Made by a program: the position numbers and the translations under genes. DNA of 64,000 bases from Alphaproteobacteria bacterium (GTDB lineage Bacteria; Pseudomonadota; Alphaproteobacteria; RF32; CAG-239), in NCBI GenBank assembly GCA_045615365.1, contig JAZLEQ010000042.1, positions 41,375 to 105,374 of the forward strand, given 5' to 3'. The notes under the pieces are model-generated. The model did not search any database. It was not told where the DNA came from and was given only the letters and a program-made list of their open reading frames with translations. Positions 6,211-24,133 of the stretch are shown piece by piece. Within the stretch, counting starts at the first letter, position 1; each line of letters opens with the position of its first letter.

Positions 6211-6401
6211 TTTTCTTCTACGTTTTGTTCCTGAGAAAGCGCTTTTTCAAGCTCTTCCACGTCTTGTTCATCGATTCTTGTTGCTTCAAAGGTATATTTT
6301 TCGGAAAACCAATTACCCAAATCAATATCTGCACATCTTTTGCTGCAGAAAGGTTTGTATTTCAAATTTTCAACTTCTTTTTTACAAATAGGACACTTCA
6401 T
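6207..6401 (-). CDS. yacG: DNA gyrase inhibitor YacG (zinc-ribbon protein)
   Basis: 64 aa with CPICKK...[16 protein letters not shown], matching the YacG signature. It overlaps the rng-like stop by 4 nt and converges on the virD4 stop with a 4-nt overlap. Confidence 0.85.
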
Positions 6402-7558
6402 TTTTCAACTCTCCCCGTTCCACCGCAAGAAGCACATTCTTCGGTAAGCAAATCACGCAAAGTCGGTCTTTTTCTGGAGCGCACAATTTCCACATTACCT
6501 GCCCTGCTAAGCCCCAAAATTCTGGCTTTTTGCTCATCATTAGCCAAGTCTTCTTCTAAAATATCCATGCTTTTTTTCAAAAACTTATAATCAGACATCC
6601 CCGCAAAATCTATTATTATTTTTCCGGACAAATTGCGTAAAATAATTTGCTTTGCAATCTCTTTTGCAGCTTCCTGATTAAGCCTTCCCAATCCTCCCTG
6701 AGCCGAAACTTCTCCGCTGTCAACATCTATTGCCACAAAAGCTCTTGTTTCCTCAATAATTATTCTGCCTCCGCAATCAAGTTTAACTGTCTTTTGTAAA
6801 GCATCCTGCAACATTTCATCAATTCCTGCCTCATCAAAAGCTTTAGCACTGTAAACCACATTACAAACGTTTTTAAGCTCATTTTCCAACAAATGATTAT
6901 CAACAACAACCCTGTTTAAATTTTCAATATTTTTACCAATAAAATTATTCACCACATTTCCATTACAAGCAAGCAAAGTAGGTGCCTTACAATTTTTAGC
7001 TTTTTCCAACACATCTTCAAACTTTTTTTCCAAATATTTAATCTCGGAAACAATTTCTTCTTCCTTAGCATCCGAAGCAGCAGTCCTAATAGTCCACCCT
7101 CCTGTTTGAGTGTTTTCAATAACAATATTGGCAAGCTTTTCCCTTATATCATCATCTTCAATTTTAGCCGAAACATTAATTTCTTCACCATACGGCTTAT
7201 AAACCGACAAATTTCCGGCAAGTTGCAAAAAACGAGTAAGTCTTGCTCCTTTTTCAGCTCTTTTTTCTTGCAAGACTTGAACTATTACATTTTGTCCTTC
7301 ACAAGCGTTCAAATCTTCCAAATAATTTTCCTCAGCATTAATAAATGCATTTTTGTCATCACCAACATCAACAAAAAAACCTTCTTTTCCGTTTGCTGTC
7401 TGAATTTTTTTAACTATTTTACCTAAATAAATATTGCCTTCATTAACACCTTTTTCATCAATCACAAAAAATTCGCGCAATTCTTTTTTCAACAAACCAG
7501 CAACTTTAACAACACCATTGTTTTTGCTAACAACAATCTCATCAATCATATTAAACAA
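6398..7558 (-). CDS. ribonuclease E/G family protein (short alphaproteobacterial Rng-like form)
   Basis: S1-like N-terminus ([12 protein letters not shown]), catalytic-core motifs [16 protein letters not shown] and [10 protein letters not shown], and a C-terminal CASCGGTG. Confidence 0.85.
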
Positions 7559-8117
7559 CCCCTGCTCCGATTAACAAATTTCTTGTTTCATACAAAGGCA
7601 AACCGACAACACCACTATATGAACCGTTAATATTTTCCACAAAAGCGCCCAAAAGACCTTCAATTTTATAACCGGCACACCCCATCCATTCTTTTGACGC
7701 AACATATTCTTTAATTTCTTGTTTGCTTAGTTTTTTCATTTTTATTTTTGTAACATTAAGCCTTTCGGCAATTTTTCCATTTTTATCAACCACACAAACA
7801 GCGGTCAAAACCCTATGATTTCTACCCGACAAAAGCTCCATTACTTTTGTTTGTTCATCATCACTATATGATTTTTGAATAATTTTGCGTCCGCAAACAA
7901 TAACTGTATCCGCTCCTAAAACAGTTTGTTTATTTTTTTCAAAAACAAACAAAGCTTTTTCTCTAGCCATTCTTTTTACATATTGCGAAGGTTTTTCATT
8001 TGCCAGAGGGGTTTCATCAATATTTGCCGGTTCTGTTTTCATCGGAACAAAACCTATTTGTTCCAACAAAGCTTTTCTCTGCGGCGATTGCGATGCTAAA
8101 ATAAAATTTTTACTCAT
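7551..8117 (-). CDS. maf: Maf-like nucleoside triphosphate pyrophosphatase
   Basis: ILASQSPQRKALLEQIGF...GADTVI...GAYGI-type motifs (GCAGYKIEG). The start is set at the internal ATG 8117 (MSKNF...) rather than the track start 8174. Confidence 0.85.
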   Translation of the reverse strand: MSKNFILASQSPQRKALLEQIGFVPMKTEPANIDETPLANEKPSQYVKRMAREKALFVFEKNKQTVLGADTVIVCGRKIIQKSYSDDEQTKVMELLSGRNHRVLTAVCVVDKNGKIAERLNVTKIKMKKLSKQEIKEYVASKEWMGCAGYKIEGLLGAFVENINGSYSGVVGLPLYETRNLLIGAGVV

Positions 8118-8176
8118 ACCAAAAATCCAAACAAAAAAAGGGGATATTTCATCCCCTAAAAAATTAAAAACCAAAC

Positions 8177-8602
8177 TTATGCTTCATCGTCATAAGTTTT
8201 TTCCATTCTTTCATGACGTTCTTGAGCTTCAATAGAATAAGTTGTAACCGGACGAGCTTCCAAGCGTTCCAAACCGATAGGATCACCTGTTTCTTCACAA
8301 TATCCGTAAGAACCGTCTTCAATTCTTTTCAAGGCATCATCAATTTTAGAAATAAGTTTTCTTGCTCTGTCTCTGGTTCTAAGCTCCAAAGCTTTATCCG
8401 ATTCCAAAGAGGCTCTATCAATTTGGTCGGGCTGGTTCAATCCGCCCTGTTTCAAATCATCCAAAGTTCCCATAGACTGACCGATTAAAGACTTTTTCCA
8501 AAAAAGCAATTTTTGTCTGAAATACATCAAATGTTTTTCGCACATATACTCTTCATCAGCCGAAGGTCTGTAGTCCGGAGAAAGAACAACTTCACTATCC
8601 AT
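8177..8602 (-). CDS. dksA: RNA polymerase-binding transcription factor DksA (zinc-finger cysteines mostly absent)
   Basis: Coiled-coil region with a DxxDxA-like tip (DQIDRASLESD). The C-terminus reads GSYGYCEETGDPIGLERLEARPVTTYSIEAQERHE. Only the first of the four canonical Cys positions is retained. Confidence 0.88.
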   Translation of the reverse strand: MDSEVVLSPDYRPSADEEYMCEKHLMYFRQKLLFWKKSLIGQSMGTLDDLKQGGLNQPDQIDRASLESDKALELRTRDRARKLISKIDDALKRIEDGSYGYCEETGDPIGLERLEARPVTTYSIEAQERHERMEKTYDDEA

Positions 8603-8699
8603 AAAACAACTCCTTAAAAAACAATATCAAAATTTTCACTAAAGATATAATAAACAAATAAAATTTCAAGCAAAAACATTGCTTTTTCCTTTTATATTT

Positions 8700-9149
8700 C
8701 TACAACATCAACTTAGCTAATTCCACTTCAACTCTCAACTCTATTTCATCAATAATTTCTTTAAGTTTTTCATCTGTAGTTTCAGCATTTTTTTGCTTAA
8801 CCAAGCGTGATATTTCAATAAGTCTGTCTTTAGAAATTTCTCCAAGCAACAATCCGTCTCTTATTTCCTCAAGCTTATCCAGTAAAGTTTTACCCTTATT
8901 TATCAACTTTCTTTTTATAAGTTTTTCTTCCTCACCATCAACTGCTTGCGCCAAAAAAATAGCATCAACTGAAGTAATATTAGACGTTGTTTGCACTTGT
9001 GTTTCTTTTTTATCGGCAATTCCGCTCAAATAATCAGCAAAATTTTCACTTCCGCCCACTCTGTTTGCCGATCTTGTTTTTGAAACATCACTATTTTTTC
9101 TTATATCATTAACCTTAAACAAAAAAACATCCCCTAGAAAAAAGTCCAT
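8700..9149 (-). CDS. fliX: FliX-like class II flagellar assembly regulator (inferred)
   Basis: VDAIFLAQAV...RKLINKGKTLLDKLEEIRDGLLLGEIS...LKEIIDEIELRVEVELAKL matches my recollection of the FliX family pattern (LLALQ...RRRAV.RG..LLD.L..L..ALL.G...L.EIE.RA.VELAKL). An alternative TTG start at 9122 would remove the 16-nt overlap with the upstream gene. Confidence 0.55.
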   Translation of the reverse strand: MDFFLGDVFLFKVNDIRKNSDVSKTRSANRVGGSENFADYLSGIADKKETQVQTTSNITSVDAIFLAQAVDGEEEKLIKRKLINKGKTLLDKLEEIRDGLLLGEISKDRLIEISRLVKQKNAETTDEKLKEIIDEIELRVEVELAKLML

Positions 9150-9778
9150 TTTATACTATTATTATCACCATTTGAACAAGCGCCTGAAATATCACTTGGA
9201 TTAACCGGAAGAACAAAAGAATCTTCTTTTTTATTGTTTGGCAAGTCAAATGTTTTCTTATAAAGAGCTTCTTTTGTCGCATCTCCCTGAAAGTCTTTAT
9301 TTTTATTTAATTCTAATTTATACAAAATCAAAGAACCTTTTGTAGACCAATTCATACTGGCTAAGGTTCTGCAGGTTTTGTTTTTTAAACCGTCAAAAGT
9401 AATGGAATATCGTCCGTTAGCATCAACAACATTTCCATTCATATCAAGCACCTTCGCCTGTTCAACCACAACACTTCCTTTTCCGCTGTGAATCAGTTTA
9501 TTATTATTACACATTTTAAACGGAGCTAATTTATCTTTACATATATTTTCATCCGCATTTCCCGTAAACAAAGCTTTATAAGTTCCGTCAAACTGATATT
9601 TTGAAGTTATTGCTTTTTGTAAATCTCTTATTTCGGAAGATATCATAGACTGGTTAAACATATCAAAAACAGCGCCTATCATTTTTATAATAGATATTCC
9701 CAACATCGAAATAACCGTCAAAGTAGCCAAAGCCTCCATCATTGTGGCACCTTTTTGACTGTTTTTATGTAGAAACAT
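9134..9778 (-). CDS. type IV pilin / pseudopilin-like protein with a prepilin-type N-terminal signal
   Basis: The start at ATG 9778 is preceded by GGAGG. The N-terminus MFLHKNSQKG|ATMMEALATLTVISMLGISII has the basic leader, Gly, Glu at +5 and hydrophobic helix typical of prepilin peptidase substrates. C-terminal Cys residues are compatible with disulfide loops. Confidence 0.6.
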   Translation of the reverse strand: MFLHKNSQKGATMMEALATLTVISMLGISIIKMIGAVFDMFNQSMISSEIRDLQKAITSKYQFDGTYKALFTGNADENICKDKLAPFKMCNNNKLIHSGKGSVVVEQAKVLDMNGNVVDANGRYSITFDGLKNKTCRTLASMNWSTKGSLILYKLELNKNKDFQGDATKEALYKKTFDLPNNKKEDSFVLPVNPSDISGACSNGDNNSIKWTFF

Positions 9779-9926
9779 TTTTCCTCCTTGAAACAACTTC
9801 AATTATATTAACATTAAAAAACGATATAAACAACAAATTATGTAATTTTTTTCTTTTCTTTTTTCTTTTATGATTTTATAGTATATTTGTTTTTATTAAT
9901 AAACAAAAAATAAAAGGGAGACTTTA

Positions 9927-10466
9927 ATGTTAAAAAAATTAGGTTTATTAGCATTGTTCGGCACACTTTTCTGCACAAACGCCAATGCATTGGAATTCAG
10001 ACCTTATGTTGGTTTGCAATATAACTATTCAGAAATAGACGCTGAAGATGTTACTCCGGATATGAACTCATATTCTGTTATTCTCGGAACCGAATATAAC
10101 AGATATTTCGGCACTGAAATTTTTTATCAAAATTCTGATAAATCAAACGATTACTACAAAGGTGAAAAAGTAAAAACAGATTTTGCAGCCTATGGTTTGG
10201 ATGCATATGGATACCTTCCTTTAGGATGCGACAGAGTGTTTTCTTTATTAGCAACCGCAGGTATTGCTAATTATGATTTTGATATCACAACACCTGAAGA
10301 AAAAGGTGATGACAACGGCTTAGGATATCGTCTCGGTGCCGGTATTCAATATAGCCTTACCAACAACATTTCTTTCAGAGCAATCGGTCGCTATATCTGG
10401 TTAGATAAAGTTGACGGAGCCGACAACGCTCAAGAATACTCTTTAGGTGTAAAATACACTTTCTAA
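9927..10466 (+). CDS. small outer-membrane beta-barrel protein (OmpA-like/OMP_b-brl type)
   Basis: Signal peptide MLKKLGLLALFGTLFCTNANA, alternating aromatic/hydrophilic strands and a C-terminal YSLGVKYTF. RBS AAGGGAG. Confidence 0.75.
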   Translation: MLKKLGLLALFGTLFCTNANALEFRPYVGLQYNYSEIDAEDVTPDMNSYSVILGTEYNRYFGTEIFYQNSDKSNDYYKGEKVKTDFAAYGLDAYGYLPLGCDRVFSLLATAGIANYDFDITTPEEKGDDNGLGYRLGAGIQYSLTNNISFRAIGRYIWLDKVDGADNAQEYSLGVKYTF

Positions 10467-10486
10467 AACAAACAAAAAAATAAAAA

Positions 10487-10513
10487 AGGAAGATGATTAA
10501 ATCTTCCTTTTTT
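10487..10513 (+). terminator. rho-independent terminator
   Basis: AGGAAGAT (10487-10494), loop GATTAA, ATCTTCCT (10501-10508), followed by a T-run. Confidence 0.7.
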
Positions 10514-10568
10514 ATTTTTATCTGATATATTCATACCTATAATAACTTTTTTTTCCAAAGGATTACTC

Positions 10569-11039
10569 ATGAAAAAATTTTCATTTATATTTTTTTCCTT
10601 GTTTTTAATAGCTTCTTGTTCACCAAAAGATACTACTCAAGAAAAAACCAAAGAAGCCTCTGCTTCTCTTGATAAAGAAACTGTGTTTTCCTTTGATGTA
10701 AAAAACATTTCCGAAGGTTGCAATTCATCTTCTGATTTAATTTGCACAATTAATTTAGCCACCAAATGCACACTAAATCCCGACTTTTTGGAATGCCTGC
10801 AAAACAAAGACAGGTTGCCTTCTTTCGTATTCATGAAAGATGAAACTTTACAAAGACCAACCTTCCAAACATACAAAATAACCAAACTTGTTCCTCGTGC
10901 AGACGGAGCTGTAGAAGTTCACACTCAAAGTTCTTGCGACGGTAATTGGTTTGGATTGTGCAACGGAAATATTATCTATGTAATGAAGAATATCAATTCA
11001 ACATGGCAAATAACCGATATGTATGCTCTTGAGATATAA
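10569..11039 (+). CDS. hypothetical lipoprotein
   Basis: Lipobox LIASC after a hydrophobic signal (MKKFSFIFFSLFLIASCS). The mature part is Cys-rich. No recognised domain. Confidence 0.65.
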   Translation: MKKFSFIFFSLFLIASCSPKDTTQEKTKEASASLDKETVFSFDVKNISEGCNSSSDLICTINLATKCTLNPDFLECLQNKDRLPSFVFMKDETLQRPTFQTYKITKLVPRADGAVEVHTQSSCDGNWFGLCNGNIIYVMKNINSTWQITDMYALEI

Positions 11040-11041
11040 AA

Positions 11042-11332
11042 CTATTCAACCAACTTAAAAAAATCTCTGTTTTCTTTATTTGTTTCAATTTCAGAAACAT
11101 CATATTCAACAACAAACACTTTTCCTGAAAACATTTTAACCAAATCTTCTTCGGGAATAGTGTTTTTTGGAATTTTTTTTGTTTTAGCATATTGTTTTAT
11201 ATTTTTTTTATATTCTTTTTGTATGTTTTTATACTCCGGTGTTTTATCATCTGTTTTTTCAAAAGAAAAACTCTCACTGGAACCGACAATTAAAAACATT
11301 AAAACAAACAACAAATATTTCATTTTAATCAA
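11042..11332 (-). CDS. small secreted hypothetical protein
   Basis: 96 aa with signal peptide MKYLLFVLMFLIVGSSESFS and a Lys-rich mature part. Confidence 0.5.
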   Translation of the reverse strand: MIKMKYLLFVLMFLIVGSSESFSFEKTDDKTPEYKNIQKEYKKNIKQYAKTKKIPKNTIPEEDLVKMFSGKVFVVEYDVSEIETNKENRDFFKLVE

Positions 11333-11367
11333 CCTTACATTAACCTATTTTGTATAACATACATTAT

Positions 11368-12036
11368 ATGATTAAAAAGCTTTTTTTTGTATTAATTCTT
11401 GTTTTTTTATATATTTTTGCACCATCATTTTTTTATACCGATTGTGCAGAGGTTGCCGTTAACCCAAAAATAACCCTATATTCATCTTTTGGCAAATTAA
11501 AAACAGATACATCAAAAAACACCGATCAACTGACTGAATTGTCCGAAAAACTGCATCTTTTGGATAAAGACTACAAAACCCCCGGACTAACAACTATAAA
11601 AATCAATTTCAACATAGAAACCCAAACTTTCGGCTTCTTGTCAAAAAACAAAAAAATATGCGTAATTCCCAAAGAAGTAACTATTTTTCTTGCTATAGAT
11701 TCTCCAACAATTTATATATCCCGAGATTTAAGAAAAAACAGTTGTAAATACAACCTAACTTCGTACCATGAATTGACTCATCATCTGATAAACATAAAAA
11801 CTTTTGAATATTATCTTCCTCTTTTTAAGATTGCTGCAGAAAAAATAATAAAAGAAACCAAACCTTTAACAATATCAGATAAGAATCAAATAAATAAAGT
11901 AAGTTTTGAATTATCAAAACAATACAACAAAAAACTTTCACCTCTTGTAAAATACATAAACAAAGAGATGTTAAATCAACAAAAATTTTTAGACAACGAG
12001 CAAAACTACAAATATGAATCCGAAATTTGCAATTAA
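11368..12036 (+). CDS. hypothetical exported protein with an HExxH motif (possible Zn-metallopeptidase, DUF922-like by inference)
   Basis: N-terminal hydrophobic signal/anchor (MIKKLFFVLILVFLYIFAP) and SYHELTHHLIN (HExxH). The start is set at ATG 11368 rather than TTG 11350. Confidence 0.55.
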   Translation: MIKKLFFVLILVFLYIFAPSFFYTDCAEVAVNPKITLYSSFGKLKTDTSKNTDQLTELSEKLHLLDKDYKTPGLTTIKINFNIETQTFGFLSKNKKICVIPKEVTIFLAIDSPTIYISRDLRKNSCKYNLTSYHELTHHLINIKTFEYYLPLFKIAAEKIIKETKPLTISDKNQINKVSFELSKQYNKKLSPLVKYINKEMLNQQKFLDNEQNYKYESEICN

Positions 12037-12704
12037 TCTTTTTGTTTTTTAATTACATCTTCCAAAAAACTTTCGATTCCTTTGTAAGCATAATCTATAT
12101 ATTTTTTGTCTTTTGCCGAATTATTCTGATAATAAATTCTAACTGTTAACATACCTGTTTCTTTAGCAAATTCCAAATTAGAATAACTATCATCAACAAA
12201 TATACAATCATTCGGATTTTTATCTATTTTTTCACAAAACTTGTAATAAACATCGGCATTTTTATTTTTCTTAAAAACCCCAAAATCTTCAACAGAATAA
12301 AACTTATTCTTAAAAAATTCATAAATTTCCAAATGTTTCAATATTTTTTCCGAAGCATATCTGTCACTTGCCGTAAAAATATATTGATCAGCCTTAATTT
12401 TTTGCAATTTTTCCAACAAATTTTCATAAGGTATTATTTTTTCAACAGGTTTTCTTTTATGATAAGCCTTAAACAAATCTTCCGGTTTAATTCCATAATC
12501 TCTATAAAAAATTTCTCCGCCATCTCTGTAAATTTTATATGATTCGGTAACCATGTTTTTAACTTTTTCAACATCCATATCAAAACCCAAATCATAAACC
12601 AAAGCTTCAGCCATAGTCTTGTCTAACAAATCACAAAACCAATCTGTTTTTCCGTAAAGTGTTTCATCCAAATCATAAATTATAACATTTCTGCCGAAAA
12701 TCAA
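12033..12704 (-). CDS. HAD-superfamily hydrolase (pyrimidine 5'-nucleotidase-like)
   Basis: Motif I IIYDLDETLY, motif with TASDR, and a late FVDDS. TTG start preceded by AAGGAG. Confidence 0.75.
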   Translation of the reverse strand: MIFGRNVIIYDLDETLYGKTDWFCDLLDKTMAEALVYDLGFDMDVEKVKNMVTESYKIYRDGGEIFYRDYGIKPEDLFKAYHKRKPVEKIIPYENLLEKLQKIKADQYIFTASDRYASEKILKHLEIYEFFKNKFYSVEDFGVFKKNKNADVYYKFCEKIDKNPNDCIFVDDSYSNLEFAKETGMLTVRIYYQNNSAKDKKYIDYAYKGIESFLEDVIKKQKD

Positions 12705-12769
12705 AATTCCAACTCCTTAACAATTCATTTTTTAAAGGCTATAATAAAAATTATATCAAATCAACAAAA

Positions 12770-13459
12770 TTAAACATTCCAAATCGGATTTTTAATTTCA
12801 TTTTCCAAAAATGTTTTATGATTTTCTTCATAATTTTCACTTATATCAAAAATTCTCGGTTGCCTGAACAATTTTTCACTATTTCTATTTTCACTTATTG
12901 CAATTTTTTCTTTATTTTTTTTAGCATCCAAAAGCAAGCTTGGTTCTTTTCCGCCCAAAAGTTCCAAATAAACTTCAGCCAACAGTTCGGCATCAAGCAG
13001 AGCTCCGTGGAAAGTTCTGGCACTATTATCAATATTATATCTTTTACAAAGAGCGTCCAAAGAGCATCTTGCTCCCGGAAACATAGAACGAGCAATAGCT
13101 AATGTATCAATACAATCATCCCAATTAAGTTGTGGTTTTGAAAGTTGTTTTAATTCATAATTAACAAAATTCATATCAAAAGATGCATTATGAGCAACCA
13201 ACTTAGCATCCCCCACAAACTCCAACCATTCATCAGCCACTTTATCAAAAGTCGGATAATCTTTTAACATCTCATAAGTCAATCCGTGAACTTTCACAGC
13301 ATCCTCTGGAACATCTCTTTCCGGATTAATATATTGATGATAAGTTTTTCCGGTCGGCAAATGATTTACTAGCTCAACCGCACCTATTTCAATTAATCTG
13401 TCACCCTTATCATAATAAAAACCTGTGGTTTCCGTATCGAAAACAATTTCTCTGACCAT
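12770..13459 (-). CDS. dnaQ: DNA polymerase III subunit epsilon (3'-5' exonuclease)
   Basis: Exo I FDTETTG, Exo II LVAHNASFDMNF, Exo III HGALLDAELLAEVYLEL. Confidence 0.92.
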   Translation of the reverse strand: MVREIVFDTETTGFYYDKGDRLIEIGAVELVNHLPTGKTYHQYINPERDVPEDAVKVHGLTYEMLKDYPTFDKVADEWLEFVGDAKLVAHNASFDMNFVNYELKQLSKPQLNWDDCIDTLAIARSMFPGARCSLDALCKRYNIDNSARTFHGALLDAELLAEVYLELLGGKEPSLLLDAKKNKEKIAISENRNSEKLFRQPRIFDISENYEENHKTFLENEIKNPIWNV

Positions 13460-13461
13460 TT

Positions 13462-14043
13462 TTACAATTCCAATTCTTTTATAATTAATATCAATTCTCT
13501 TTTAAGCAAATTCATAGATTTATTCGTATCAACAACAAAATCCGCAAATTTTTTCTTATCCTCATTTTTCATCTGTAAATTATTAATTTTTTCAAAATCT
13601 TTTTCAGAAACATTATCTCTTTTCATAACTCTTTGTTTTTGAATTTCATAATCCACATCGGCTAAAATAACAGCATCACAATATTTATCCCATTTTTTTT
13701 CAAAAAGCAAAGCAGCATCAAGAAAAAATAAATAATTTTTTTTTGCTGTTGAATTTATTTTATTTTTAATTTTTCTATTCAAAAAAGGATAAATTAAATT
13801 TTCCAACTTATTAAGTTTTTCAACATCTGAAAACACCAAATTTCTAAGACATCTCTTATCTATATCCCCGTTTTTCACACACTCACTAAAATTTATTTTC
13901 AATTTTTCTAAGAATTTTTTATTATAATACAATGCTCTAACCCAAGCATCTATATCAAAAACCGCATACCCGAGTTTTTTAATTATCTTAGCAATCGTTG
14001 TTTTTCCGCAACCTATAGAACCGGTTATAGCAACCAACTTCAT
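13462..14043 (-). CDS. coaE: dephospho-CoA kinase
   Basis: P-loop VAITGSIGCGKTT with family-typical length and layout, immediately upstream of dnaQ. Confidence 0.88.
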   Translation of the reverse strand: MKLVAITGSIGCGKTTIAKIIKKLGYAVFDIDAWVRALYYNKKFLEKLKINFSECVKNGDIDKRCLRNLVFSDVEKLNKLENLIYPFLNRKIKNKINSTAKKNYLFFLDAALLFEKKWDKYCDAVILADVDYEIQKQRVMKRDNVSEKDFEKINNLQMKNEDKKKFADFVVDTNKSMNLLKRELILIIKELEL

Positions 14044-14521
14044 ATTATTATCCTACAATCAAAAGGTTAGACTACTTTTCCACAAACGGCTCAAAATCTG
14101 TGCATAAAAAACCGTTTTATAAAATTCATCTTATATTATTACACATATATAAAATTTAAAATCAACACTTATAAACAAGAGATTTTTTTATCCTCCCCTG
14201 TTGATAACAAAATTTCAAAAAAAATACTAAAATTTCTCTTTTCAATACTATTGTTATTAAAAAGCAAAAGGTTAACAAAAAATTAAAAAAGGATTCGCCA
14301 AAACTTATCGACAAGCATCAATCCTGTGCACAACTCAGATGATAAAAAATAATCCACAAGACTCACATCGATATACAAATAACAACAAAACTTTTTAAAT
14401 ATATTATTAGGCCCTTCGGGCTGTTAATAAAAATAATTGACATTTTTCAAAAAACAACCTATACCAAAATCAATAAATAAAAAAATTTATTTCTCAAAAC
14501 AATTTCCCAAAAAAGGTAACT
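14044..14521. other. candidate chromosomal replication origin (oriC)
   Basis: AT-rich gene-free gap between divergent coaE and rho. Five 9-mers lie within one mismatch of TTATCCACA: 14076-14084, 14099-14107 (rc), 14199-14207 (rc), 14305-14313 and 14350-14358. Two more have two mismatches (14188-14196, 14325-14333). TTAA-N7-TTAA occurs at 14272-14286. Gene orientation switches here. Confidence 0.55.
14437..14465 (+). promoter_or_regulatory. candidate rho promoter
   Basis: TTGACA (14437-14442), 17-nt spacer, TATACC (14460-14465), 57 nt upstream of the rho ATG. A short GC hairpin GCCC-TTC-GGGC lies at 14411-14421. Confidence 0.3.
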
Positions 14522-15775
14522 ATGAATTTAAAAGATTTAAAACAAAAATCTCCTGTTGAGTTATTAACTCAAGCAGAGAAACTTGGCATAGAAGACGCTT
14601 CTTCAATGCGCAAGCAAGACCTTATGTTTGCAATTCTCAAAAAAACAGTTGGAGAAGACGAAGCTATAACAGGTGAAGGTGTAATTGAAGTTATGCAAGA
14701 CGGCTTTGGATTCTTGCGTTCTTCAGAATCAAACTATCTGGCAGGTCCTGATGATATATATGTATCTCCCGCTCAAGTTAAAAAGTTTGGTCTAAGAACC
14801 GGCGATACAGTTGAAGGGGAAATTCGTGCACCCAAAGAAAACGAAAGATATTTTGCTTTGGTAGATATAAATAAGATTAATTTTGATAATCCTGAAAAAT
14901 CAAAATTGCGAGTAAATTTTGACAACCTCACACCATTATATCCGAATGAAAAACTGAATTTTGATATAATTTGCGGTGATAAAGATTATACCACCCGCGT
15001 TATAGACTTAATATCTCCGCAAGGAAAAGGACAAAGAGGTCTGATTGTAGCACCTCCTCGCACAGGTAAAACGGTGATGTTGCAAAATATAGCTCATGCT
15101 ATTGCAGAAAACCACCCTGAATGCTATTTAATGGTCTTATTGATAGATGAACGCCCTGAAGAAGTAACCGATATGACTCGCTCTGTTAAAGGCGAAGTTA
15201 TATCATCAACTTTTGATGAACCGGCAACACGTCACGTTCAAGTTGCTGAAATGGTTATTGAAAAAGCTAAAAGGCTCGTTGAAAATAAAAAAGATGTTGT
15301 AATTTTACTCGACTCAATCACCCGTCTTGGCAGAGCCTACAACACAGTTATTCCTTCATCAGGAAAAGTTTTAACCGGTGGTGTAGATGCCAATGCACTC
15401 CAAAGGCCTAAAAGGCTTCTTGGAGCCGCTCGCAATGTTGAAGAAGGCGGATCACTAACCATAATTGCAACCGCACTAATTGATACCGGTTCAAGAATGG
15501 ACGAAGTTATTTTTGAAGAATTTAAGGGAACAGGTAATTCTGAAATTATATTGGATAGAAAATTAACCGATAAGAGATTATTCCCAACCATTGATATAAC
15601 CCGTTCCGGCACCAGAAAAGAAGAACTTTTGGTAAATAAAGATATTCTTACCAAAATGTGGGTATTACGTCGTGTTCTTATGCAAATGGGAATGACCGAC
15701 GGCATGGAATTTTTGCTTGATAAATTAAAAGTCAGCAAAGATAATAACGACTTCTTTAATAACATGAATTCTTAA
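14522..15775 (+). CDS. rho: transcription termination factor Rho
   Basis: N-terminal [10 protein letters not shown]..., cold-shock-like RNA-binding domain (GFGFLR), P-loop PPRTGKT and [11 protein letters not shown]. Confidence 0.97.
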
Positions 15776-15780
15776 ACAAA

Positions 15781-15809
15781 AAAAAGCTCCTGAATTAGGA
15801 GCTTTTTTT
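15781..15809. terminator. bidirectional rho-independent terminator
   Basis: AGCTCCT (15785-15791), loop GAATT, AGGAGCT (15797-15803), flanked by an A-run and a T-run, between convergent rho and the HAD gene. Confidence 0.75.
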
Positions 15810-15810
15810 A

Positions 15811-16470
15811 TTAACTGAAATTTTTTATCAAAAATTCATTCACATCTTTCATATTATCAAAAACATGTTCTACAGGCATTTTTTTAATTTCTTCTTTATA
15901 ATAATCATTGCTATACTGAATAAAAGCAACAGGAGTCATTTTTGCACTTATAGCAGCTCTAAGCCCTGCTAATGAATCTTCCACCACAATACAATCTTTT
16001 GGTTCATATCCCATAGATTTTGCCGCCAATAAAAACAAATCAGGTTCAGGTTTTCCTACTTTAACCATATCCACCGTAAAAACTTTTTCTTCCGGAAAAT
16101 ATTTTCTGATACCCACACTTTCAATTTTTAATTTTGTTTTATTTTTAATTCCTCCGGTTGCAATACATTGTTCAAAATTTTTGTTATTAAAAATATCTTC
16201 AAGTCCGTCTGTTAACACAAAACCTTCTTCATATTTTTTTGCATCCATTGCCCAAACTTTTTTCCAAAAAGCATCATCAATATTTATTCCCAATTTTGCA
16301 AAAACAACTTTTTTATCATTATCGCTCATTCCGCCGATATTTTTAAAAGTATCAATCAAACTCCAATTTGTTCCGTAAGATTGATTCAAAACTTCCATTC
16401 TGTTAATCACCCAAAGTTTTTCTGTATCGGCAATAACACCGTCAAAATCCCAAATTATTAATTTTTTCAT
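15811..16470 (-). CDS. HAD-superfamily hydrolase (beta-phosphoglucomutase-like subfamily)
   Basis: IIWDFDGVIADTE motif I, ATGG, and VVEDSLAGLRAA. The start is set at ATG 16470 (MKKLII..., RBS AGAGGAAAA). Confidence 0.8.
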   Translation of the reverse strand: MKKLIIWDFDGVIADTEKLWVINRMEVLNQSYGTNWSLIDTFKNIGGMSDNDKKVVFAKLGINIDDAFWKKVWAMDAKKYEEGFVLTDGLEDIFNNKNFEQCIATGGIKNKTKLKIESVGIRKYFPEEKVFTVDMVKVGKPEPDLFLLAAKSMGYEPKDCIVVEDSLAGLRAAISAKMTPVAFIQYSNDYYKEEIKKMPVEHVFDNMKDVNEFLIKNFS

Positions 16471-16644
16471 ATTTTCCTCTAAAAAAACAGCTTCGCAGGA
16501 AGCCCACACAAAAGAATTTAGAAGATTCTATAATATATTGATTAAAAAAATATAAAAACCCTCTCTTGAGTCAAAAAAAAGCTTTTTTGTGCTTGCAAGA
16601 TTTTTCTAATGATTTTATAACTCTAAAACAAGAGGAAAAATCAA

Positions 16645-17976
16645 ATGACAAACAAAACCATATATGCTCTATCAACCGTAAACGGAAAATCCGGTGTTGC
16701 CATAATTCGTATATCAGGCGACAAAGCAATCAATGTTATAAGAAACATGACAGATATTTCTGTAGAAAATATAATTCCCAGAAAAGCCTATTTTTCAAAT
16801 ATTAAAGATTTATCGGGCAATCTGCTGGATAAAGCCCTGATTATGTATTTTTCTGCACCAAACTCTTTTACGGGAGAAGATATCGTAGAACTTCATCTTC
16901 ATGGTTCAAAAGCTGTCATATCATCAGTATTGGCTTGTTTGTCATCACTAGAAGATTTTCGTTTAGCCGAAGCCGGAGAATTTTCTAAAAGAGCGTTTTA
17001 TAACAACAAAATGGATTTAACCGAAGCCGAAGGTTTAGCAGATCTTATAGATGCTGAAACCTCCGAACAACAAAAATACGCATTAAGACAAATAGAAGGA
17101 AATCTAAAAAATCTTTATGACGGATGGCGAGAAGAACTCCTAAGAATAATGAGTCACCTTGAAGCATACATAGATTTCCCTGATGAAGACTTACCTTCTG
17201 ACATTATTGAAAATATGCAAAACACTGTATTTAAAATTAAAGAAGATATAAAAAAGCATCTTTCGGGTAATAATATTGGTGAAAGGCTGAGAGATGGCTT
17301 TAGAGTTGCAATTATAGGCGAACCTAATTCCGGCAAGTCATCGCTTGTAAATACCATTGTCGGCAGAGAGGCCGTAATTGTTTCAGACATAGCAGGAACA
17401 ACCCGTGACGCTATAGATATTCATCTTAATGTAAGAGGATATCCGATAATTATAACAGATACTGCAGGTTTGCGAAATACAGATGAATCTATTGAAAAGA
17501 AAGGAATAGAAATAGCTTACAAAAAAGCAAACGAAGCCGATTTTGTAATATGTTTATTTGATGCCGAAAAAACAATTCCGCAAGAGTTTTCAAATATTGC
17601 AGGAAACAAAAGCATTTATGTTGCCAACAAATGCGACAAACTATCTCAAGAAACAATAAGTTTGCTTAAAAATAAAGGTTATACAACCATTTCAGCAAAA
17701 CAAAATCAAGGAATTGAAGATATATTTGAAATTATAGGAAACAAGATATCTGAAGAATTTTCTTCAACTTCCGGATATTTAATAACTCGTCAACGTTATC
17801 AAGAAGCTTTAAGAAACACTGTTAATTGTTTGGAAAACTTTAATTTTGATAAAGAAATAGAGCTTTCAGCCGAAGATTTGCGATTAGCTTGTAGAGAGAT
17901 CGGAAAAATCACCGGAAGAATAGAGATAAATGAAATATTAGATAAAATTTTCGGCTCTTTTTGTATTGGGAAATAG
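16645..17976 (+). CDS. mnmE: tRNA modification GTPase MnmE
   Basis: [13 protein letters not shown]-domain [10 protein letters not shown] / DTAG / NKCD, and the C-terminal FCIGK motif. Confidence 0.95.
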
Positions 17977-17977
17977 A

Positions 17978-19825
17978 ATGTTAGAAGAATTTGATGTAAT
18001 AGTTGTCGGAGGCGGTCATGCCGGTTGTGAAGCGGCGGGCGCATCATCAAGAATGGGAGCAAAAACAGCTTTGATAACCCATAAAATATCAACAATAGGT
18101 GCAATGTCATGCAATCCTGCCATAGGTGGATTAGGAAAAGGACATTTAGTCAGAGAGATAGATGCTCTTGACGGATTAATGGCAAAAGTCATTGATAAAG
18201 CCGGAATACAGTTTCGCATGCTTAACCAATCCAAAGGCCCTGCTGTTAGAGGTCCGCGAGCACAAGCCGACAGAGAATTATATAAAAAACACATGTTAGA
18301 AGCTCTCAACGAGCAAGAAAACCTCACAATAATTGAAGCTTCTGCAGAAGGTCTTGTTTTTGAAGAAAACAAGATAAAAGGCATAATTTTATCTGACAAA
18401 ACGGTTATAAAATCCCAAGCTGTAATTTTAACTTCAGGAACATTTTTAAACGGACTTATATTTATAGGTCACGAAACAACGGTTGGTGGAAGGATAGATG
18501 ATGTTTCATGTTCCGGTATAACACCGTATTTAAAGCAAATGGGATTAAATTTAGGGCGCTTAAAAACAGGAACACCTGCCCGTTTGAACGGAAAAACCAT
18601 AAACTGGGATATTTTGGAAAAACAAGAAGGTGATGAAAAACCAACCCCCTTCTCTTTTCTAAACAAAGAAATTTCTAATCCGCAAATAAGTTGCTATATA
18701 ACCCACACCAACGAAGAAACTCATAAAATAATTCGTGACAACTTCAACAAGTGTGCCTTATTTTCCGGCTTAATTACCGGATTAGGCCCCAGATATTGTC
18801 CAAGCATAGAAGATAAATTAGTCAAATTTGCAGACCGCACATCTCACCAAATATTTTTGGAACCTGAGGGTTTGAACACAGATGTTGTTTATCCTAACGG
18901 GATTTCAACCTCCTTACCTGCAGATGTTCAAGATGCTTTCATTCACACTATGAAGGGCTTAGAAAATGTTGAAATTTTGAAACCCGCATATGCAATAGAA
19001 TATGATTATGTTGATCCTAAAGAATTAAACAATAAACTTGAATGTAAAAAGATAAAAAACTTGTTCCTTGCCGGTCAAATAAACGGAACAACAGGCTATG
19101 AAGAAGCTGCAGCTCAAGGATTGGTTGCAGGTATTAATGCGGCCCTAAAATCACAAAACAGTGACAAAGAATTTACTATTGACCGCTCAGAGGCATATAT
19201 TGGGGTTATGATAGACGATCTTATCACCAAAGGTGTTGACGAACCATATCGTATGTTTACCTCACGCTCTGAATACAGGCTTTATTTGCGCGCAGACAAT
19301 GCGGATATGCGTCTAACCGAAAAAGGATATCAAATAGGTTGTGTAAGTCCTTTAAGATACAGTGTATTTAAAGATAAAAAACAACAAGTAGAAGCTTTTA
19401 GAAAATTAAGCAACAACCTGTCTGTTTCGGCAAAAGACCTAAAATCTGTAAATTTAAATATAAAGCAAGACGGTTCTAAAAAGACTTGTTTTAATCTTTT
19501 ATCTTACCAAGATGTTTCACATGAAACACTATTAAACATATGGCCTGGTTTAGCAAATATTTCCAACGATGTTTTTGAACAAATAGAAATAGAAGCAAAA
19601 TATTCAGGCTATATAAAAAGACAGCTTGCTGATATTGAAGTTTTCAAGAAAGATGAAAATTTAAAAATAAGAGAAGATATTGACTATTCAAAAATAGGTG
19701 GACTTTCTCGTGAAATGATATTTAAGCTTTCATCGGTTAAGCCTTCAACCATAGGTGAGGCTTCTCGCATACCGGGAGTGACGCCTGCAGCCATAACAGC
19801 ATTACTTGGATATATAAAAAAATGA
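17978..19825 (+). CDS. mnmG: tRNA uridine 5-carboxymethylaminomethyl modification enzyme MnmG (GidA)
   Basis: [18 protein letters not shown] motif and [23 protein letters not shown] at 17978, two nt after the mnmE stop. Confidence 0.95.
19513..19528. promoter_or_regulatory. parS-like centromere site (15/16 to consensus)
   Basis: TGTTTCACATGAAACA versus consensus TGTTTCACGTGAAACA. It lies inside mnmG (encoding VSHET) and is identical to the copy at 21444-21459. Confidence 0.65.
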
Positions 19826-20433
19826 GTAAATTACCTGATATAAAACAAATGATATGTTTGTGGCAAGAAAGTCTTTCGGGGGTTCTTTCTTATGCAAGCG
19901 ATAAAATAAAAATAGATTATATTTATCATACAACGATTGTTGCAAAAACGGCTTCAATAATAGCTGAAAAAAGTGGTTTAGATAAAGAAAAAGCATATGC
20001 TTTGGGTTTGCTTCATGATTATGGTAAAATAAAAAACGAAAAACTCGGTATGCCTCATTTTTTAGAAGGATACTATCAAATGATGTCTTTAGGTTTTCCG
20101 GATATTGCAAAAATTTGCTTAACTCATAGTTTTCCCATAAAAGATTTTAGTTTCAAAGACTATACTTCGTATAATAAAAATTTTCTTTCTCAAACAAAAG
20201 AGTTGTTGTCAAAAATTGAGTTTGATTATTACGATCGTTTAATTCAATTTTGCGACATTATTTCTGAAGGCAAAGACCTTGTTAAATATGAAGCTCGTTT
20301 GGAGTGTATTCGTAACCGCTACAATCTGACCGACGAGCAAACAAAAAATTTGAAAGTTGGAGCCGAACAAAACAAAGCCTGTTTTGACAAGTTGTGCGGT
20401 TGTGATGTCTATACTCTGTTAAAGATATCTTAA
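19822..20433 (+). CDS. HD-domain phosphohydrolase (YqeK-like by inference)
   Basis: [12 protein letters not shown] (the HD dyad) plus an upstream His. 203 aa. ATGA overlap with the mnmG stop. Confidence 0.65.
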
Positions 20434-20471
20434 TTTGTTTATTATAGTTTTGCCAATCAAGGAGATTTTTT

Positions 20472-21290
20472 ATGCAAAACTGTAACTATCATTGTCACAC
20501 AAGCTTTAAGGGGATTTTTGACGGCAGAAACACACCCGACGAAATGATTTCCGCATACGAAGAAAAGGGTTTTTCCAAGATTGGAATCAGTAATCATTGT
20601 GTGTGTCATCCGACAATAGCCAAAATGCCTTTTATGAGTCCGCAATTTTTTTCAGACAACAATAAATTCGTTGATATATACAAAGAAAGTTTCGAATCGA
20701 TAGATGAGGCGGCCGCAAAACACTCCATAAAAGTATATAAAGGGTTGGAAGTTGATTTTTTTCCTTCAAAAGAGTGGCACCAATCCTTTGAATTTATAAT
20801 GAAAGAGCTAAATCCCGATTATATTATAGGCTCAACACACTTTATTCGCAGCAAAGCAGAAGATTTAATGTGTGGCATATATTTTCTAAACACCCTGCCC
20901 TCTTTAACAAAAGAGGAGAAGGATGAACTTTTGCGTAATTATTGGGAAAATATTTTAATGTCAATAAAAAGCGGTTATTTCAAATTTATAGCCCACATAG
21001 ACTATTGTTGCCAGTTTAATTTATGCACCGGTTCAGAATGGGATGAATATAAGTATAAAGTAATAGACGCTTTATATAAACACAATACCGCTTGCGAAAT
21101 AAACACGGGAGGTCTCCGACGTATTGGGCGCCCATTTCCTGATTGGTGGATGATAAAAGAGATGATAAAAAAAGAAATTCCTTTAATTATAAGCGACGAT
21201 GCTCATCAAACCTCACAAACAGCCTCTCATTTTGTTGAGGTTGAAAACAAATTGAAAGAACTTGGTTGTAAAAAACGTTTTTCTTTTTAA
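20472..21290 (+). CDS. PHP-domain phosphoesterase (histidinol-phosphatase HisJ-like family)
   Basis: N-terminal YHCHTSF (HxH), GISNHC, STHF, IAHIDY and SDDAH, the ordered metal-ligand motifs of PHP/HisJ enzymes. Confidence 0.7.
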   Translation: MQNCNYHCHTSFKGIFDGRNTPDEMISAYEEKGFSKIGISNHCVCHPTIAKMPFMSPQFFSDNNKFVDIYKESFESIDEAAAKHSIKVYKGLEVDFFPSKEWHQSFEFIMKELNPDYIIGSTHFIRSKAEDLMCGIYFLNTLPSLTKEEKDELLRNYWENILMSIKSGYFKFIAHIDYCCQFNLCTGSEWDEYKYKVIDALYKHNTACEINTGGLRRIGRPFPDWWMIKEMIKKEIPLIISDDAHQTSQTASHFVEVENKLKELGCKKRFSF

Positions 21291-21417
21291 GAGAAAGATT
21301 CAATATCAGGTGTTTAAGTTGTTGTTTTAAAATAAATTTTGTTTTTGTTGTAAATATGTGTTTATAACTGTTATTTTTTTATTTTAAATTTTTTATAAAA
21401 AATATAAAAAATAAATT

Positions 21418-22056
21418 ATGAAAAATATTGCAGAAAAATACAATGTTTCACATGAAACAATTACCGATTTAAACACCTACCACACTCTTCTTATTGAATG
21501 GCAGGAAAAGATAAATTTGGTTAGTGATTCAAGTTTGTTACAAGCAAAAACACGCCATTTTGAAGACTCTGTTCAGCTTTTTAAGTATATTCCAAAAGGC
21601 GCGGAAACCTTAATAGATTTTGGTTCTGGGGCTGGTTTTCCTGCTCTTGTTTTAGCAATAATTGCAAAAACAGAAACGCCGTATTTAAATATAAGCATGG
21701 TTGAGAGTATTAAGAAAAAAACAGTGTTTTTAAAAGAGGTCGCCGAAAAAACCGGAACAAAGGTTCAAATAATAAACGATAGAATCGAAAATGTTAAAAC
21801 TCAAAAGTTTGATGTTATAACTTCAAGAGCAATGACATCTCTTGATAATCTGTTGAATTATTCATACAGGTTTTGTTCAAAAAACACTGTTTGTATTTTT
21901 CCGAAAGGAAAAAAATATGCTGAAGAACTTTCACTTGCTCATAAAAAATGGAATTTTAAATGCTGTATTGAACCAAGCTCAATATCAGATGAAGGAAAAA
22001 TTTTAATTATAACCAAGCTATCAAAAAAAGGAGAAAATAAATGCCAAGAATTTTAG
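21418..22056 (+). CDS. rsmG: 16S rRNA (guanine527-N7)-methyltransferase RsmG (GidB)
   Basis: SAM motif IDFGSGAGFPALVLAI, TSRA, and position between mnmG and parA. Confidence 0.92.
   Translation: MKNIAEKYNVSHETITDLNTYHTLLIEWQEKINLVSDSSLLQAKTRHFEDSVQLFKYIPKGAETLIDFGSGAGFPALVLAIIAKTETPYLNISMVESIKKKTVFLKEVAEKTGTKVQIINDRIENVKTQKFDVITSRAMTSLDNLLNYSYRFCSKNTVCIFPKGKKYAEELSLAHKKWNFKCCIEPSSISDEGKILIITKLSKKGENKCQEF
21444..21459. promoter_or_regulatory. parS-like centromere site (15/16 to consensus)
   Basis: TGTTTCACATGAAACA inside the 5' end of rsmG (encoding VSHET). Identical to 19513-19528. Confidence 0.65.
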
Positions 22057-22817
22057 CTGTCGCAAACCGTAAAGGTGGTGTCGGTAAGACAACAACCGCC
22101 GTAAATGTTGCAACCGCTATGGCGGCTGCCGGTAAAAAAGTATTGTTGGTTGATCTTGATCCTCAAGGCAACGCAACAACATCAATGGGAATCGAGAAAA
22201 AAGGATCAATGAAGTCTTCATATGATGTATTAATCGGGGCTGCGCGACTGGCAGACGCAATAGTTTGGAGTGAAATTCCGGGTTTTTCATTAATTCCGTC
22301 ATCTGCTGATTTGGCTGCTGCCGAAATAGAGCTTGTTGATGTTGTAAAAAGAGAATTTTTATTAAAAAAAGCTTTAGAAAAAGATGCTGTAAATTATGAT
22401 TATGTTTTAATAGATTGTCCTCCTTCATTGAGTCTTGTAACAGTAAATGCGTTGGTTGCATCAGATGCTGTTATAATTCCTTTACAATGTGAGTTTTTGG
22501 CCTTGGAAGGAATTTCTGATTTAATAAAAAACATAAACACCATAAAAAAGAATTTTAATCCGTCGCTAACACTGCACGGGGTTGTTTTAACAATGTATGA
22601 TAAAAGAAACAACCTTACACAAATGGTTGAAGATGATGTTAGAAGTTTTTTCGGTAAAAAAGTATATGACACTGTAATTCCGCGCAATGTCAGAATTTCT
22701 GAAGCACCGTCGCATGGAAAACCTGTATTGCTATACGATTTTAAATGTTCGGGATCACAAGCTTATATCGGTTTAACCAAAGAAGTTTTGAAAAGAGAAA
22801 GAGAGTTGGCAGCATGA
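22041..22817 (+). CDS. parA: chromosome partitioning ATPase ParA
   Basis: Deviant Walker A ANRKGGVGKTTT, DLDPQGN, and IDCPPSL. Confidence 0.95.
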   Translation: MPRILAVANRKGGVGKTTTAVNVATAMAAAGKKVLLVDLDPQGNATTSMGIEKKGSMKSSYDVLIGAARLADAIVWSEIPGFSLIPSSADLAAAEIELVDVVKREFLLKKALEKDAVNYDYVLIDCPPSLSLVTVNALVASDAVIIPLQCEFLALEGISDLIKNINTIKKNFNPSLTLHGVVLTMYDKRNNLTQMVEDDVRSFFGKKVYDTVIPRNVRISEAPSHGKPVLLYDFKCSGSQAYIGLTKEVLKRERELAA

Positions 22818-23785: not shown

Positions 23786-23803
23786 ACGAAGAAGGAACAA
23801 AAA

Positions 23804-24037
23804 ATGACAATACTTGAAAAGATGTTGGAAAACTGTGAAAAAGCAGGATACACAACAACCAAAAATGTTCAAAAAATAGCTAATGCAAAACAAATGATGT
23901 TTGGTGATGCGGAATGGCACAGATGCCCTTGCGACGGTAAAAATCCGGATCGTTATTGTATTTCGGATTTGTGTCGTTCGGACATAGAACGCGACGGAGA
24001 ATGTCACTGTCATTGTTATTGTAAAAAAGTAGGATAA
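23804..24037 (+). CDS. small Cys-rich protein, ferredoxin-thioredoxin-reductase catalytic-subunit-like (inferred)
   Basis: 77 aa with HRCPCDGKNPDRYCISDLCRSDIERDGECHCHCYC, which resembles the CPC...C...CHC cluster of FTR catalytic chains. A strong terminator follows. Confidence 0.4.
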   Translation: MTILEKMLENCEKAGYTTTKNVQKIANAKQMMFGDAEWHRCPCDGKNPDRYCISDLCRSDIERDGECHCHCYCKKVG

Positions 24038-24040
24038 ACA

Positions 24041-24067
24041 AAAAAAGCCCCTCGCGGGCTTTTTTTA
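24041..24067 (+). terminator. rho-independent terminator
   Basis: A-run, AGCCC / CTCGC loop / GGGCT (24046-24060), then T7. Confidence 0.75.
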
Positions 24068-24133
24068 TTTAATAATATATTTACCTAATTATAATAGACT
24101 TTCCTTATATCAATAAATTTTTGGAAAAAAGAA

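Follow-up and report, generated by a model that had tools for sequence, protein, structure and literature searches.

A probable DnaA-dependent replication origin between coaE and rho in an alphaproteobacterial metagenome-assembled genome

The coaE–rho spacer and its DnaA-box array

The stretch of DNA analysed here (the window) spans 64,000 nucleotides, C42:41375–105374 of an alphaproteobacterial metagenome-assembled genome (MAG), G000, whose assembly comprises 1.603 Mb in 48 contigs, with 36.6% G+C and a rating of 99.9% complete. Its nearest relatives are MAGs of uncultured organisms, named 'Alphaproteobacteria bacterium' and recovered from metagenomes of gut, faeces and rumen. Between the genes coaE and rho, at window positions 14044–14521, lies a spacer of 478 bp with 75% A+T and no open reading frame (ORF). 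An earlier note on this DNA had described the gap as AT-rich and without an ORF and proposed it as a candidate oriC. The sequence evidence set out below supports that proposal through a unique cluster of DnaA boxes, a skew switch in relatives and a conserved gene junction, and the spacer is very probably the chromosomal origin (oriC) at which this uncultured gut bacterium starts DnaA-dependent replication.

Nine conserved TTAT-NN-ACA elements, in both orientations, extend over about 360 bp of the spacer (14076–14430). They are listed here with the other features, from left to right:

14057–14069, plus strand: match to the IHF consensus, AATCAAAAGGTTA, in the coaE leader
14076–14084, plus strand: DnaA box TTTTCCACA, one mismatch; perfect TTATCCACA in five congeners
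14099–14107, minus strand: DnaA box TGTGCATAA (reverse complement TTATGCACA), one mismatch
14110–14165, no strand: candidate unwinding region DUE-L, rich in A+T, between boxes 2 and 3, holding the conserved AAAATTTAA
14169–14177, plus strand: DnaA-like box TTATAAACA, two mismatches; TTA...ACA invariant in 20 species
14188–14196, plus strand: weak DnaA-like box TTATCCTCC, two mismatches; column conservation 0.6–0.95
14199–14207, minus strand: DnaA box TGTTGATAA, one mismatch; TGT..ATAA kept
14272–14286, no strand: CtrA-type motif TTAACAAAAAATTAA (TTAA-N7-TTAA), not overlapping a DnaA box
14305–14313, plus strand: DnaA box TTATCGACA, one mismatch
14325–14333, minus strand: DnaA-like box TGTGCACAA, two mismatches; moderate conservation
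14350–14358, plus strand: DnaA box TAATCCACA, one mismatch; conserved A5 run before the box
14370–14410, no strand: second AT-rich stretch of low stability, DUE-R, with a conserved block GATATACAAATAACAAC and TAT TAT TAG trios
14402–14430, plus strand: module resembling the basal unwinding system (BUS), with trios at 14402–14410, a spacer at 14411–14421 and a box at 14422–14430
14437–14465, plus strand: candidate rho promoter, TTGACA at 14437–14442, 17 nt, TATACC at 14460–14465

Five of these boxes lie within one mismatch of TTATCCACA (14076, 14305 and 14350 on the plus strand, 14099 and 14199 on the minus strand), as the earlier note had listed; the two-mismatch boxes number four (14169, 14188, 14325 and 14422) rather than the two it had counted. 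Across the 1.6 Mb of the genome, 8 perfect and 541 one-mismatch boxes were found, and these 549 sites correspond to 0.16 per 478 bp, rising to 0.25 per 478 bp in ORF-free gaps; the previous rough expectation of about 0.1 was near enough. The spacer is the densest DnaA-box cluster of the whole genome. It ranks first among the 169 ORF-free gaps of at least 300 bp, with five boxes (the runner-up holds three in 844 bp), and it alone among them adds a CtrA and an IHF motif to its boxes. Dinucleotide-preserving shuffles of the spacer (n = 2000) gave a mean of 0.175 boxes and a maximum of three, and none of the 2000 reached five. The spacer is also the top cluster in the whole genome of G004, a near-complete relative used with all 8 of its contigs (1.46 Mb, contig order inferred), and on the 394-kb contig (C1) of another relative, G020. 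A second cluster in the window, four same-strand boxes at 32545–32934 within a ctpA-like S41 peptidase gene, was attributed to chance because the G004 and G020 orthologs carry no boxes.

At least 24 species of the genus (~25) have been sequenced. The spacer was compared in 19 congeners and in G025, which belongs to another family of the same order, and the spacer alignment covers 20 species. The coaE–rho junction, with a spacer of 458–504 bp, is present in 19/19 congeners and in G025, and absent in seven other alphaproteobacterial families. The CoaE proteins of the compared species are only 57–71% identical, and neutral DNA should therefore be scrambled over such distances. Column conservation in the alignment averages 0.89 over the one-mismatch boxes and 0.84 over the two-mismatch boxes, compared with 0.63 elsewhere (permutation 0/20000). 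Within the boxes, positions 1–4 and 7–9 are nearly invariant and positions 5–6 are free, matching the known degeneracy of DnaA boxes at positions 5–6. The columns of the box at 14076–14084 illustrate this pattern (1, 1, 0.9, 0.95, 0.5, 0.5, 1, 1 and 1). The best conserved box is that at 14099–14107, with 8/9 columns at 0.95 or above, and the weak box at 14188–14196 reads ATCCACA or ATTCACA in several congeners. The alignment indicates that the predicted binding-site columns are under purifying selection.

The least stable 30-mer within 13001–16000 (14132–14161, −26.6 kcal/mol) falls in DUE-L, a region that is partly conserved. On the right, the box TGTTAATAA (14422–14430; two mismatches, conserved) is preceded by the conserved 11-nt spacer GCCCTTCGGGC, which forms a GC-rich hairpin, and by the trios of DUE-R. 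The published rule for a BUS (a DnaA box with at most two mismatches, a spacer of at most 16 bp and at least three NAN trios; PMC8287927) is satisfied in G000, yet the three-trio run is lost in most congeners and the chance rate of such modules is high in AT-rich DNA. The scan for BUS and DnaA trios was not discriminating in DNA of this composition, and its match counts as weak evidence.

At the aligned place, the CtrA-type motif is exact in 12/20 species and present in the loose form TTWW-N7-TTWW in 14/20. The IHF match at 14057 is exact in 5/20 species, and its core TCAR-N4-5-TTR is kept in 16/20. The TTGACA-N17-TATAxx element just upstream of rho was missed by a strict consensus scan; its −35 hexamer is invariant in 20 species and its −10 hexamer reads TATAAA or TATATA in relatives, a pattern that probably marks the rho promoter. 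GANTC occurs twice in the spacer, with 1.2 sites expected. Scans of the spacer for Rfam families and terminators found none.

Neighbouring genes, skew step and opposite pole

The genes and sites that frame the spacer are as follows:

12770–13459, minus strand: dnaQ (DNA polymerase III epsilon), TIGR01406, 279.6 bits
13462–14043, minus strand: coaE (dephospho-CoA kinase), left flank, TIGR00152, 139 bits (cutoff 65.6)
14522–15775, plus strand: rho, right flank, TIGR00767, 691.7 bits
19513–19528, no strand: parS-like site TGTTTCACATGAAACA, inside mnmG
21444–21459, no strand: second parS-like site, identical to the first, inside rsmG
22041–23785, plus strand: parA–parB partition operon

On the plus strand, the order to the right of the spacer is rho, mnmE, mnmG, an HD hydrolase gene, a PHP phosphatase gene, rsmG, parA and parB. 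The two parS-like sites, 5 and 7 kb to the right of the spacer and just upstream of parAB, are the only matches to the parS consensus with at most two mismatches in the genome. The pair occupies the same places in G004, where these are the sole two in the genome (two mismatches each), and in G020, where both are perfect.

The dnaA gene lies on contig C38, at least 56 kb from the spacer across the C42–C38 junction. Synteny places it on the rho arm, 68 kb from the spacer in G020 and 48 kb in G004. No DnaA box with one mismatch or fewer was found near it in the last 7.7 kb of C38, and a better cluster beside dnaA, which the earlier note had named as an observation that would speak against the candidate, was found neither there nor elsewhere in the genome.

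Neither hemE nor DUF299 (the CC0001/COG1806 family) is present in the whole 99.9%-complete genome. The set of encoded proteins includes DnaA, DciA (51.6 bits), the CtrA equivalog (401 bits, cutoff 350), GcrA (124.7 bits), IHF-alpha (117.6 bits, cutoff 111), IHF-beta (126.9 bits, cutoff 115), HU and two Xer-type recombinases. A CcrM-like methylase matches its model over the full length (E = 1.5e-180; 600 bits, under the clade-specific cutoff of 830). The idea of a compacted Caulobacter junction, raised in the earlier note, agrees with the genome-wide lack of hemE and DUF299 and with the presence of CtrA, GcrA, the CcrM-like methylase, IHF, ParAB and parS. As judged from gene content and order, the spacer appears as a Caulobacter-type origin neighbourhood minus hemE and DUF299, in which coaE and rho directly abut the putative origin.

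Raw cumulative GC skew of the contig has its minimum at window position 16871, but raw skew tracks gene strand. The plain cumulative skew was set aside because of this confounding and was replaced by a strand-independent skew (R), split from the transcription-linked part (coding strand G > C), and by the skew at third codon positions (GC3), where the transcription-linked part is close to zero. R takes discrete values: in G000, skewed DNA has |R_GC3| of 0.36–0.50 and unskewed DNA is at about zero at all three codon positions. On a map with rho on the right, R is negative to the coaE side, where the plus strand is rich in C and A, and about zero to the rho side. A sign of this lagging type is what DNA lying left of an origin should have.

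The step falls at the spacer in G020 (−0.27 to −0.45 over 202 kb vs −0.01 to +0.19 over 192 kb) and in G004 (|0.14–0.27| over 330 kb vs 0.00 ± 0.05 over 188 kb), and the GC3 skew of G016, G011 and G017 likewise steps there. Pooled R3 in G000 is −0.445 at 6398–14043, −0.276 from rho to mnmG and +0.081 at 19822–29712. The sign of the step is of the origin type in six species. The skew analysis that had been suggested as a check thus places a switch at the spacer in five relatives; in G000 the switch lies no more than about 5 kb away. Everywhere it is a one-sided step.

Two side observations concern local composition. The spacer itself has 36 G and 84 C on the plus strand in G000, and in all 20 orthologous gaps C is well above G on that strand (rho drawn right), a left-arm-like composition. 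Rightward transcription had been claimed for every gene from 14522 to 29712, but a HAD-family hydrolase gene between rho and mnmE (15811–16509) is on the minus strand. Its orientation is kept in relatives, a tandem duplicate is present in G020, and its skew is the most 'left-arm-like' among the genes to the right of the spacer (GC3 −0.40).

Only one other major step was found within a contig, at about 72–80 kb of G004 C4 and about 30.8 kb of G000 C8, and it is of the terminus type. A dif-like site was located at this step by a core-pattern search. The dif consensus and the CtrA probe sequence served as search probes only, and the CtrA match was then verified with NCBIfam. A search with the E. 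coli dif by mismatch count had found nothing clear. The site reads TTGTCGCATAA-TATATA-TTATGGATACT in G000 (C18:12028–12055) and TTGTCGCATAA-TATAGA-TTATGTATATT at the orthologous position in G004 (C4:79808). In G004, about 744–750 kb of the 1.46 Mb are skewed and about 713–716 kb are unskewed, and the spacer and the dif-like site divide the genome into about 750 and 713 kb (contig order inferred). The spacer and the dif-like site thus act like opposite poles of a chromosome with balanced replichores. A segment of about 36 kb that holds the dif-like site is inverted in G000 relative to G004, with the same skew sign in both.

These data bear on whether the spacer could instead be a terminus, a fork barrier or a chance cluster of motifs. 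AT-rich spacers raise the chance rate of AT-rich motifs, and a skew step alone marks either pole. However, the sign of the step (C-rich plus strand on the left, rho on the right) indicates an origin, the other step holds the dif-like site, and the shuffle and permutation tests exclude chance, so that this explanation is left with next to no probability.

The assignment of the spacer as oriC rests on several concordant lines. The box array is unique genome-wide and its columns are conserved as boxes; a parS pair beside parAB sits 5 and 7 kb away; the skew step has the origin sign and the dif-like site is approximately antipodal in G004. In addition, no box cluster accompanies dnaA, the minimum of duplex stability over the surrounding 3 kb falls within the spacer, and DnaA, DciA, CtrA, GcrA, a CcrM-like methylase and IHF are encoded. 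Finally, the neighbourhood fits the published alphaproteobacterial context and in-silico criteria (PMC6393856, PMC1914354).

Several observations weigh against this assignment. No perfect consensus box is present in the G000 spacer, and the canonical flanking genes hemE and DUF299 are missing. In G000, the switch zone covers 14.0–19.8 kb, with the spacer at its left edge and rho–mnmG still skewed. The classical −/+ flip is not seen, since the rho arm has a skew of about zero and lacks gene-orientation bias, and the departure of forks in both directions is only half supported. As to Caulobacter-style regulation, the CtrA-type motif pointed out in the earlier note does occur at 14272–14286, but neither it (P ~0.2) nor the IHF match (P ~0.11) is individually significant in shuffles, and CtrA control rests on one motif, exact in 12/20 species, vs five in the origin of Caulobacter crescentus (Cori). 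Lastly, the assembly is a 48-contig MAG, and the replichore balance was derived in a congener, from 8 contigs in an inferred order.

Part of this evidence would also suit a DnaA-regulated divergent promoter or a DnaA-titrating locus (like datA), with the real origin elsewhere, possibly at an unassembled junction. The spacer contains the invariant TTGACA-N17-TATAxx rho promoter and has no perfect box in G000, and the assemblies are gapped and without rRNA operons. No 16S rRNA gene was found in four MAGs (G000, G004, G020 and G016), which leaves their rRNA operons unassembled and probably accounts for some contig breaks; the orientation of rRNA operons consequently failed as a marker of fork direction. 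On the other side, none of three genomes has a comparably dense cluster elsewhere, nine conserved boxes over 360 bp far exceed the needs of promoter regulation, and the skew step, the parS pair with parAB and the approximately antipodal dif-like site all point to the spacer. A regulatory or titrating function in place of an origin is accordingly considered very unlikely.

The one-armed imprint and its possible causes

The origin itself is ordinary; the odd part is a conserved imprint on one replichore only, bounded by the DnaA-box array and the dif-like site. At a normal origin the skew changes from −r to +r. In the present case, R_GC3 is −0.2 to −0.45 on the coaE arm and about zero on the rho arm (−0.15 to +0.19) in six species, over up to 330 and 540 kb. 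Gene orientation follows the same division: 571/995 genes of the coaE arm are co-oriented with a fork from the spacer (57.4%, p = 3.5e-6), vs 282/559 in the rho arm (50.4%, p = 0.87). The difference between the arms has p ~0.01, in species that share ancestry and are not independent samples.

The skew state matches block by block between G004 and G000, with few exceptions, and contigs C3 and C18 of G000 bridge the skewed contigs of G004, so that the skewed DNA fits one arc. The segment C11:1200–6326 of G000 is strongly skewed, but in G004 and G020 the orthologous genes belong to the unskewed rho arm and have an R3 of about zero; the skew state therefore follows location, not gene. A chimeric MAG as the source of the two skew classes was ruled out on this ground and by the recurrence of the boundary on 394-kb and 531-kb contigs of other species.

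The zero of the rho arm is an equilibrium, because it holds at all codon positions, also in species where synonymous divergence is saturated. Moreover, the orientation of the rho-to-parB block beside the spacer is constant in 20 species, and yet the block has no skew. Taken together, the constant orientation and the equilibrium zero exclude scrambling by inversions, flip-flop inversion of the rho arm (rho–mnmE onward abuts the spacer in the same way in 20/20 species) and a re-equilibration caught half-way after an inversion (R is about zero at three codon positions, saturated divergence included).

The simplest replicative reading of the imprint is that the origin is real and that replication is asymmetric, with a fork of fixed direction into the coaE arm and a rho arm copied either way about equally. 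A possible cause would be unidirectional initiation toward coaE in about half of the cycles, after which the lone fork would run past dif and copy the rho arm in reverse. Such a reading modifies the origin assignment and does not contradict it. It accommodates the negative R_GC3 of the coaE arm next to the near-zero rho arm in six species, the equilibrium at all three codon positions, a rho-to-parB block never reoriented in 20 species and still unskewed, and the co-orientation of 57.4% vs 50.4%; unidirectional initiation at a chromosomal oriC also has an experimental precedent (PMC11551766). However, that precedent, in Vibrio cholerae, is mostly lethal (PMC11551766), and its known cause does not apply, as loss of DciA was ruled out by the presence of its gene. 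A near-exact 50:50 balance in several species would be unexplained, and the species in the orientation test are not independent. A purely mutational cause is possible as well, since about 250 chromosomes with asymmetric skew, described in SkewDB as hard to explain, lack an accepted cause (PMC8941118). Asymmetric replication is therefore put forward tentatively, as a possibility with the odds against it.

A different scheme was considered in which two initiation sites, the spacer and another about 350–450 kb off, would be used alternately, giving four arcs of 0, +, 0 and −. It predicts a (−|0) step at the origin and no direct −/+ flips, and no such flip occurs in any contig. Nevertheless, the skewed DNA of G004 joins into one arc through the bridging G000 contigs C3 and C18, the skewed arcs would measure 521 vs 218 kb where the model needs equal ones, and no boundary of the origin type other than the spacer was found to carry a box cluster. 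The arc lengths of G004 had at first favoured the four-arc model. Synteny then revealed the apparent 'boundary' at about 520 kb of C1 to be a small island and placed the skewed DNA in a single arc, and the model was dropped; alternate use of two sites is regarded as highly improbable.

Some smaller blocks depart from their surroundings. In G000, the skewed coaE arm is interrupted upstream of the window by 24 kb of unskewed DNA (C42:285–24176), whose large genes (3.5, 3.6, 2.5 and 2.1 kb) share one strand; the synteny map shows no G004 orthologs for this block, and it is probably an inserted island. Unskewed islands of 6–9 kb also occur in the skewed contigs C18 and C3. Conversely, C38:7137–13687 is a small skewed island in unskewed DNA, holding the best XerD-like gene (C38:12806–13666). 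Its G020 orthologs lie in the skewed arm, and it probably represents a recent translocation that keeps its old composition.

Proposed initiation scheme and comparison with known origins

In the scheme suggested by the layout of the spacer, DnaA would bind and oligomerise on the approximately nine TTAT-NN-ACA boxes over about 360 bp, and the duplex would open in one of the AT-rich stretches, 14110–14165 or 14370–14410. DnaB would then be loaded with DciA, and forks would leave toward coaE and rho. ParB on the two parS sites, 5–7 kb off, is predicted to segregate the duplicated origins. CtrA may compete at the central motif of the array. Opening may also be modulated by transcription starting at the rho promoter, as it is in Cori by transcription of hemE. 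The CtrA-type site, the rho promoter and the two GANTC sites thus offer possible handles for a Caulobacter-style cell-cycle machinery.

The assignment would supply a coordinate zero, a replichore map and a cell-cycle control region for widespread uncultured gut and rumen Alphaproteobacteria. It would also mean that a Caulobacter-type origin survives the loss of both canonical flanking genes, and that a search relying on hemE or DUF299 would overlook such an origin. Asymmetric skew has been catalogued as an unexplained anomaly; it becomes testable in this genus, with its ~25 sequenced species and plentiful metagenomic reads. If asymmetric replication were true, it would be a natural, stable mix of unidirectional and bidirectional replication that would explain the asymmetric-skew chromosomes of SkewDB, and the rho arm, half of the chromosome, would have had no net replication direction over evolutionary time.

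Cori contains 2 G-boxes, 5 W-boxes and five CtrA sites (PMC6393856), and hemE and DUF299 flank the origin in Caulobacter and Rickettsia (PMC6393856, PMC1914354). The spacer shares with Cori the coaE/dnaQ ... rho–mnmE–mnmG–rsmG–parAB neighbourhood and a mostly imperfect DnaA-box array (PMC6393856), and would function in a similar way. Both also have an AT-rich region, an edge promoter, and TTAA-N7-TTAA, GANTC and IHF-like sites. As in the host of Cori, CtrA, GcrA, a CcrM-like methylase, IHF and DciA are encoded. Unlike Cori, the spacer does not lie between hemE and DUF299, both absent from the genome, and it has a single CtrA motif instead of five, free of DnaA-box overlap where the Cori type has one overlapping. 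Its boxes also come closer to the consensus of E. coli (TTAT-NN-ACA), its GANTC sites show no enrichment and there is no Rfam small RNA match.

The origins predicted in Wolbachia, Rickettsia, Ehrlichia and Anaplasma (Ioannidis et al. 2007, PMC1914354) are likewise intergenic, longer than 300 bp and equipped with DnaA, CtrA and IHF motifs. Like these Rickettsiales predictions, the spacer is unique genome-wide, has an A+T content above average, carries sites with extra conservation and coincides with a skew shift (PMC1914354), and like several of them it has few CtrA sites (PMC1914354). It differs in its boundary genes, coaE and rho in place of hemE, COG1806 or COG1253, and in its nine DnaA boxes, compared with two to four.

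With regard to the basal unwinding system (PMC8287927), the right part of the spacer offers the box TGTTAATAA, an 11-nt GC-rich spacer and TAT TAT TAG, with a proximal trio of 3'-GAT-5'. The three-trio run is, however, not kept in most congeners, and the rule is permissive in AT-rich DNA.

Finally, the imprint resembles that of the asymmetric chromosomes of SkewDB, in which strong skew on one replichore contrasts with almost none on the other (PMC8941118). In contrast to those cases, the asymmetry here is anchored to a DnaA-box origin and a dif-like site, is seen at third codon positions regardless of gene strand in six species of a genus, and is accompanied by a lack of gene-orientation bias in the unskewed arm. 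The closest experimental parallel is ori1 of V. cholerae after DciA depletion, an engineered and mostly lethal state with unidirectional initiation (PMC11551766). Both involve a DnaA-dependent chromosomal origin from which only one replichore is reliably started, in the present case by inference; unlike the DciA-depleted state, G000 keeps DciA.

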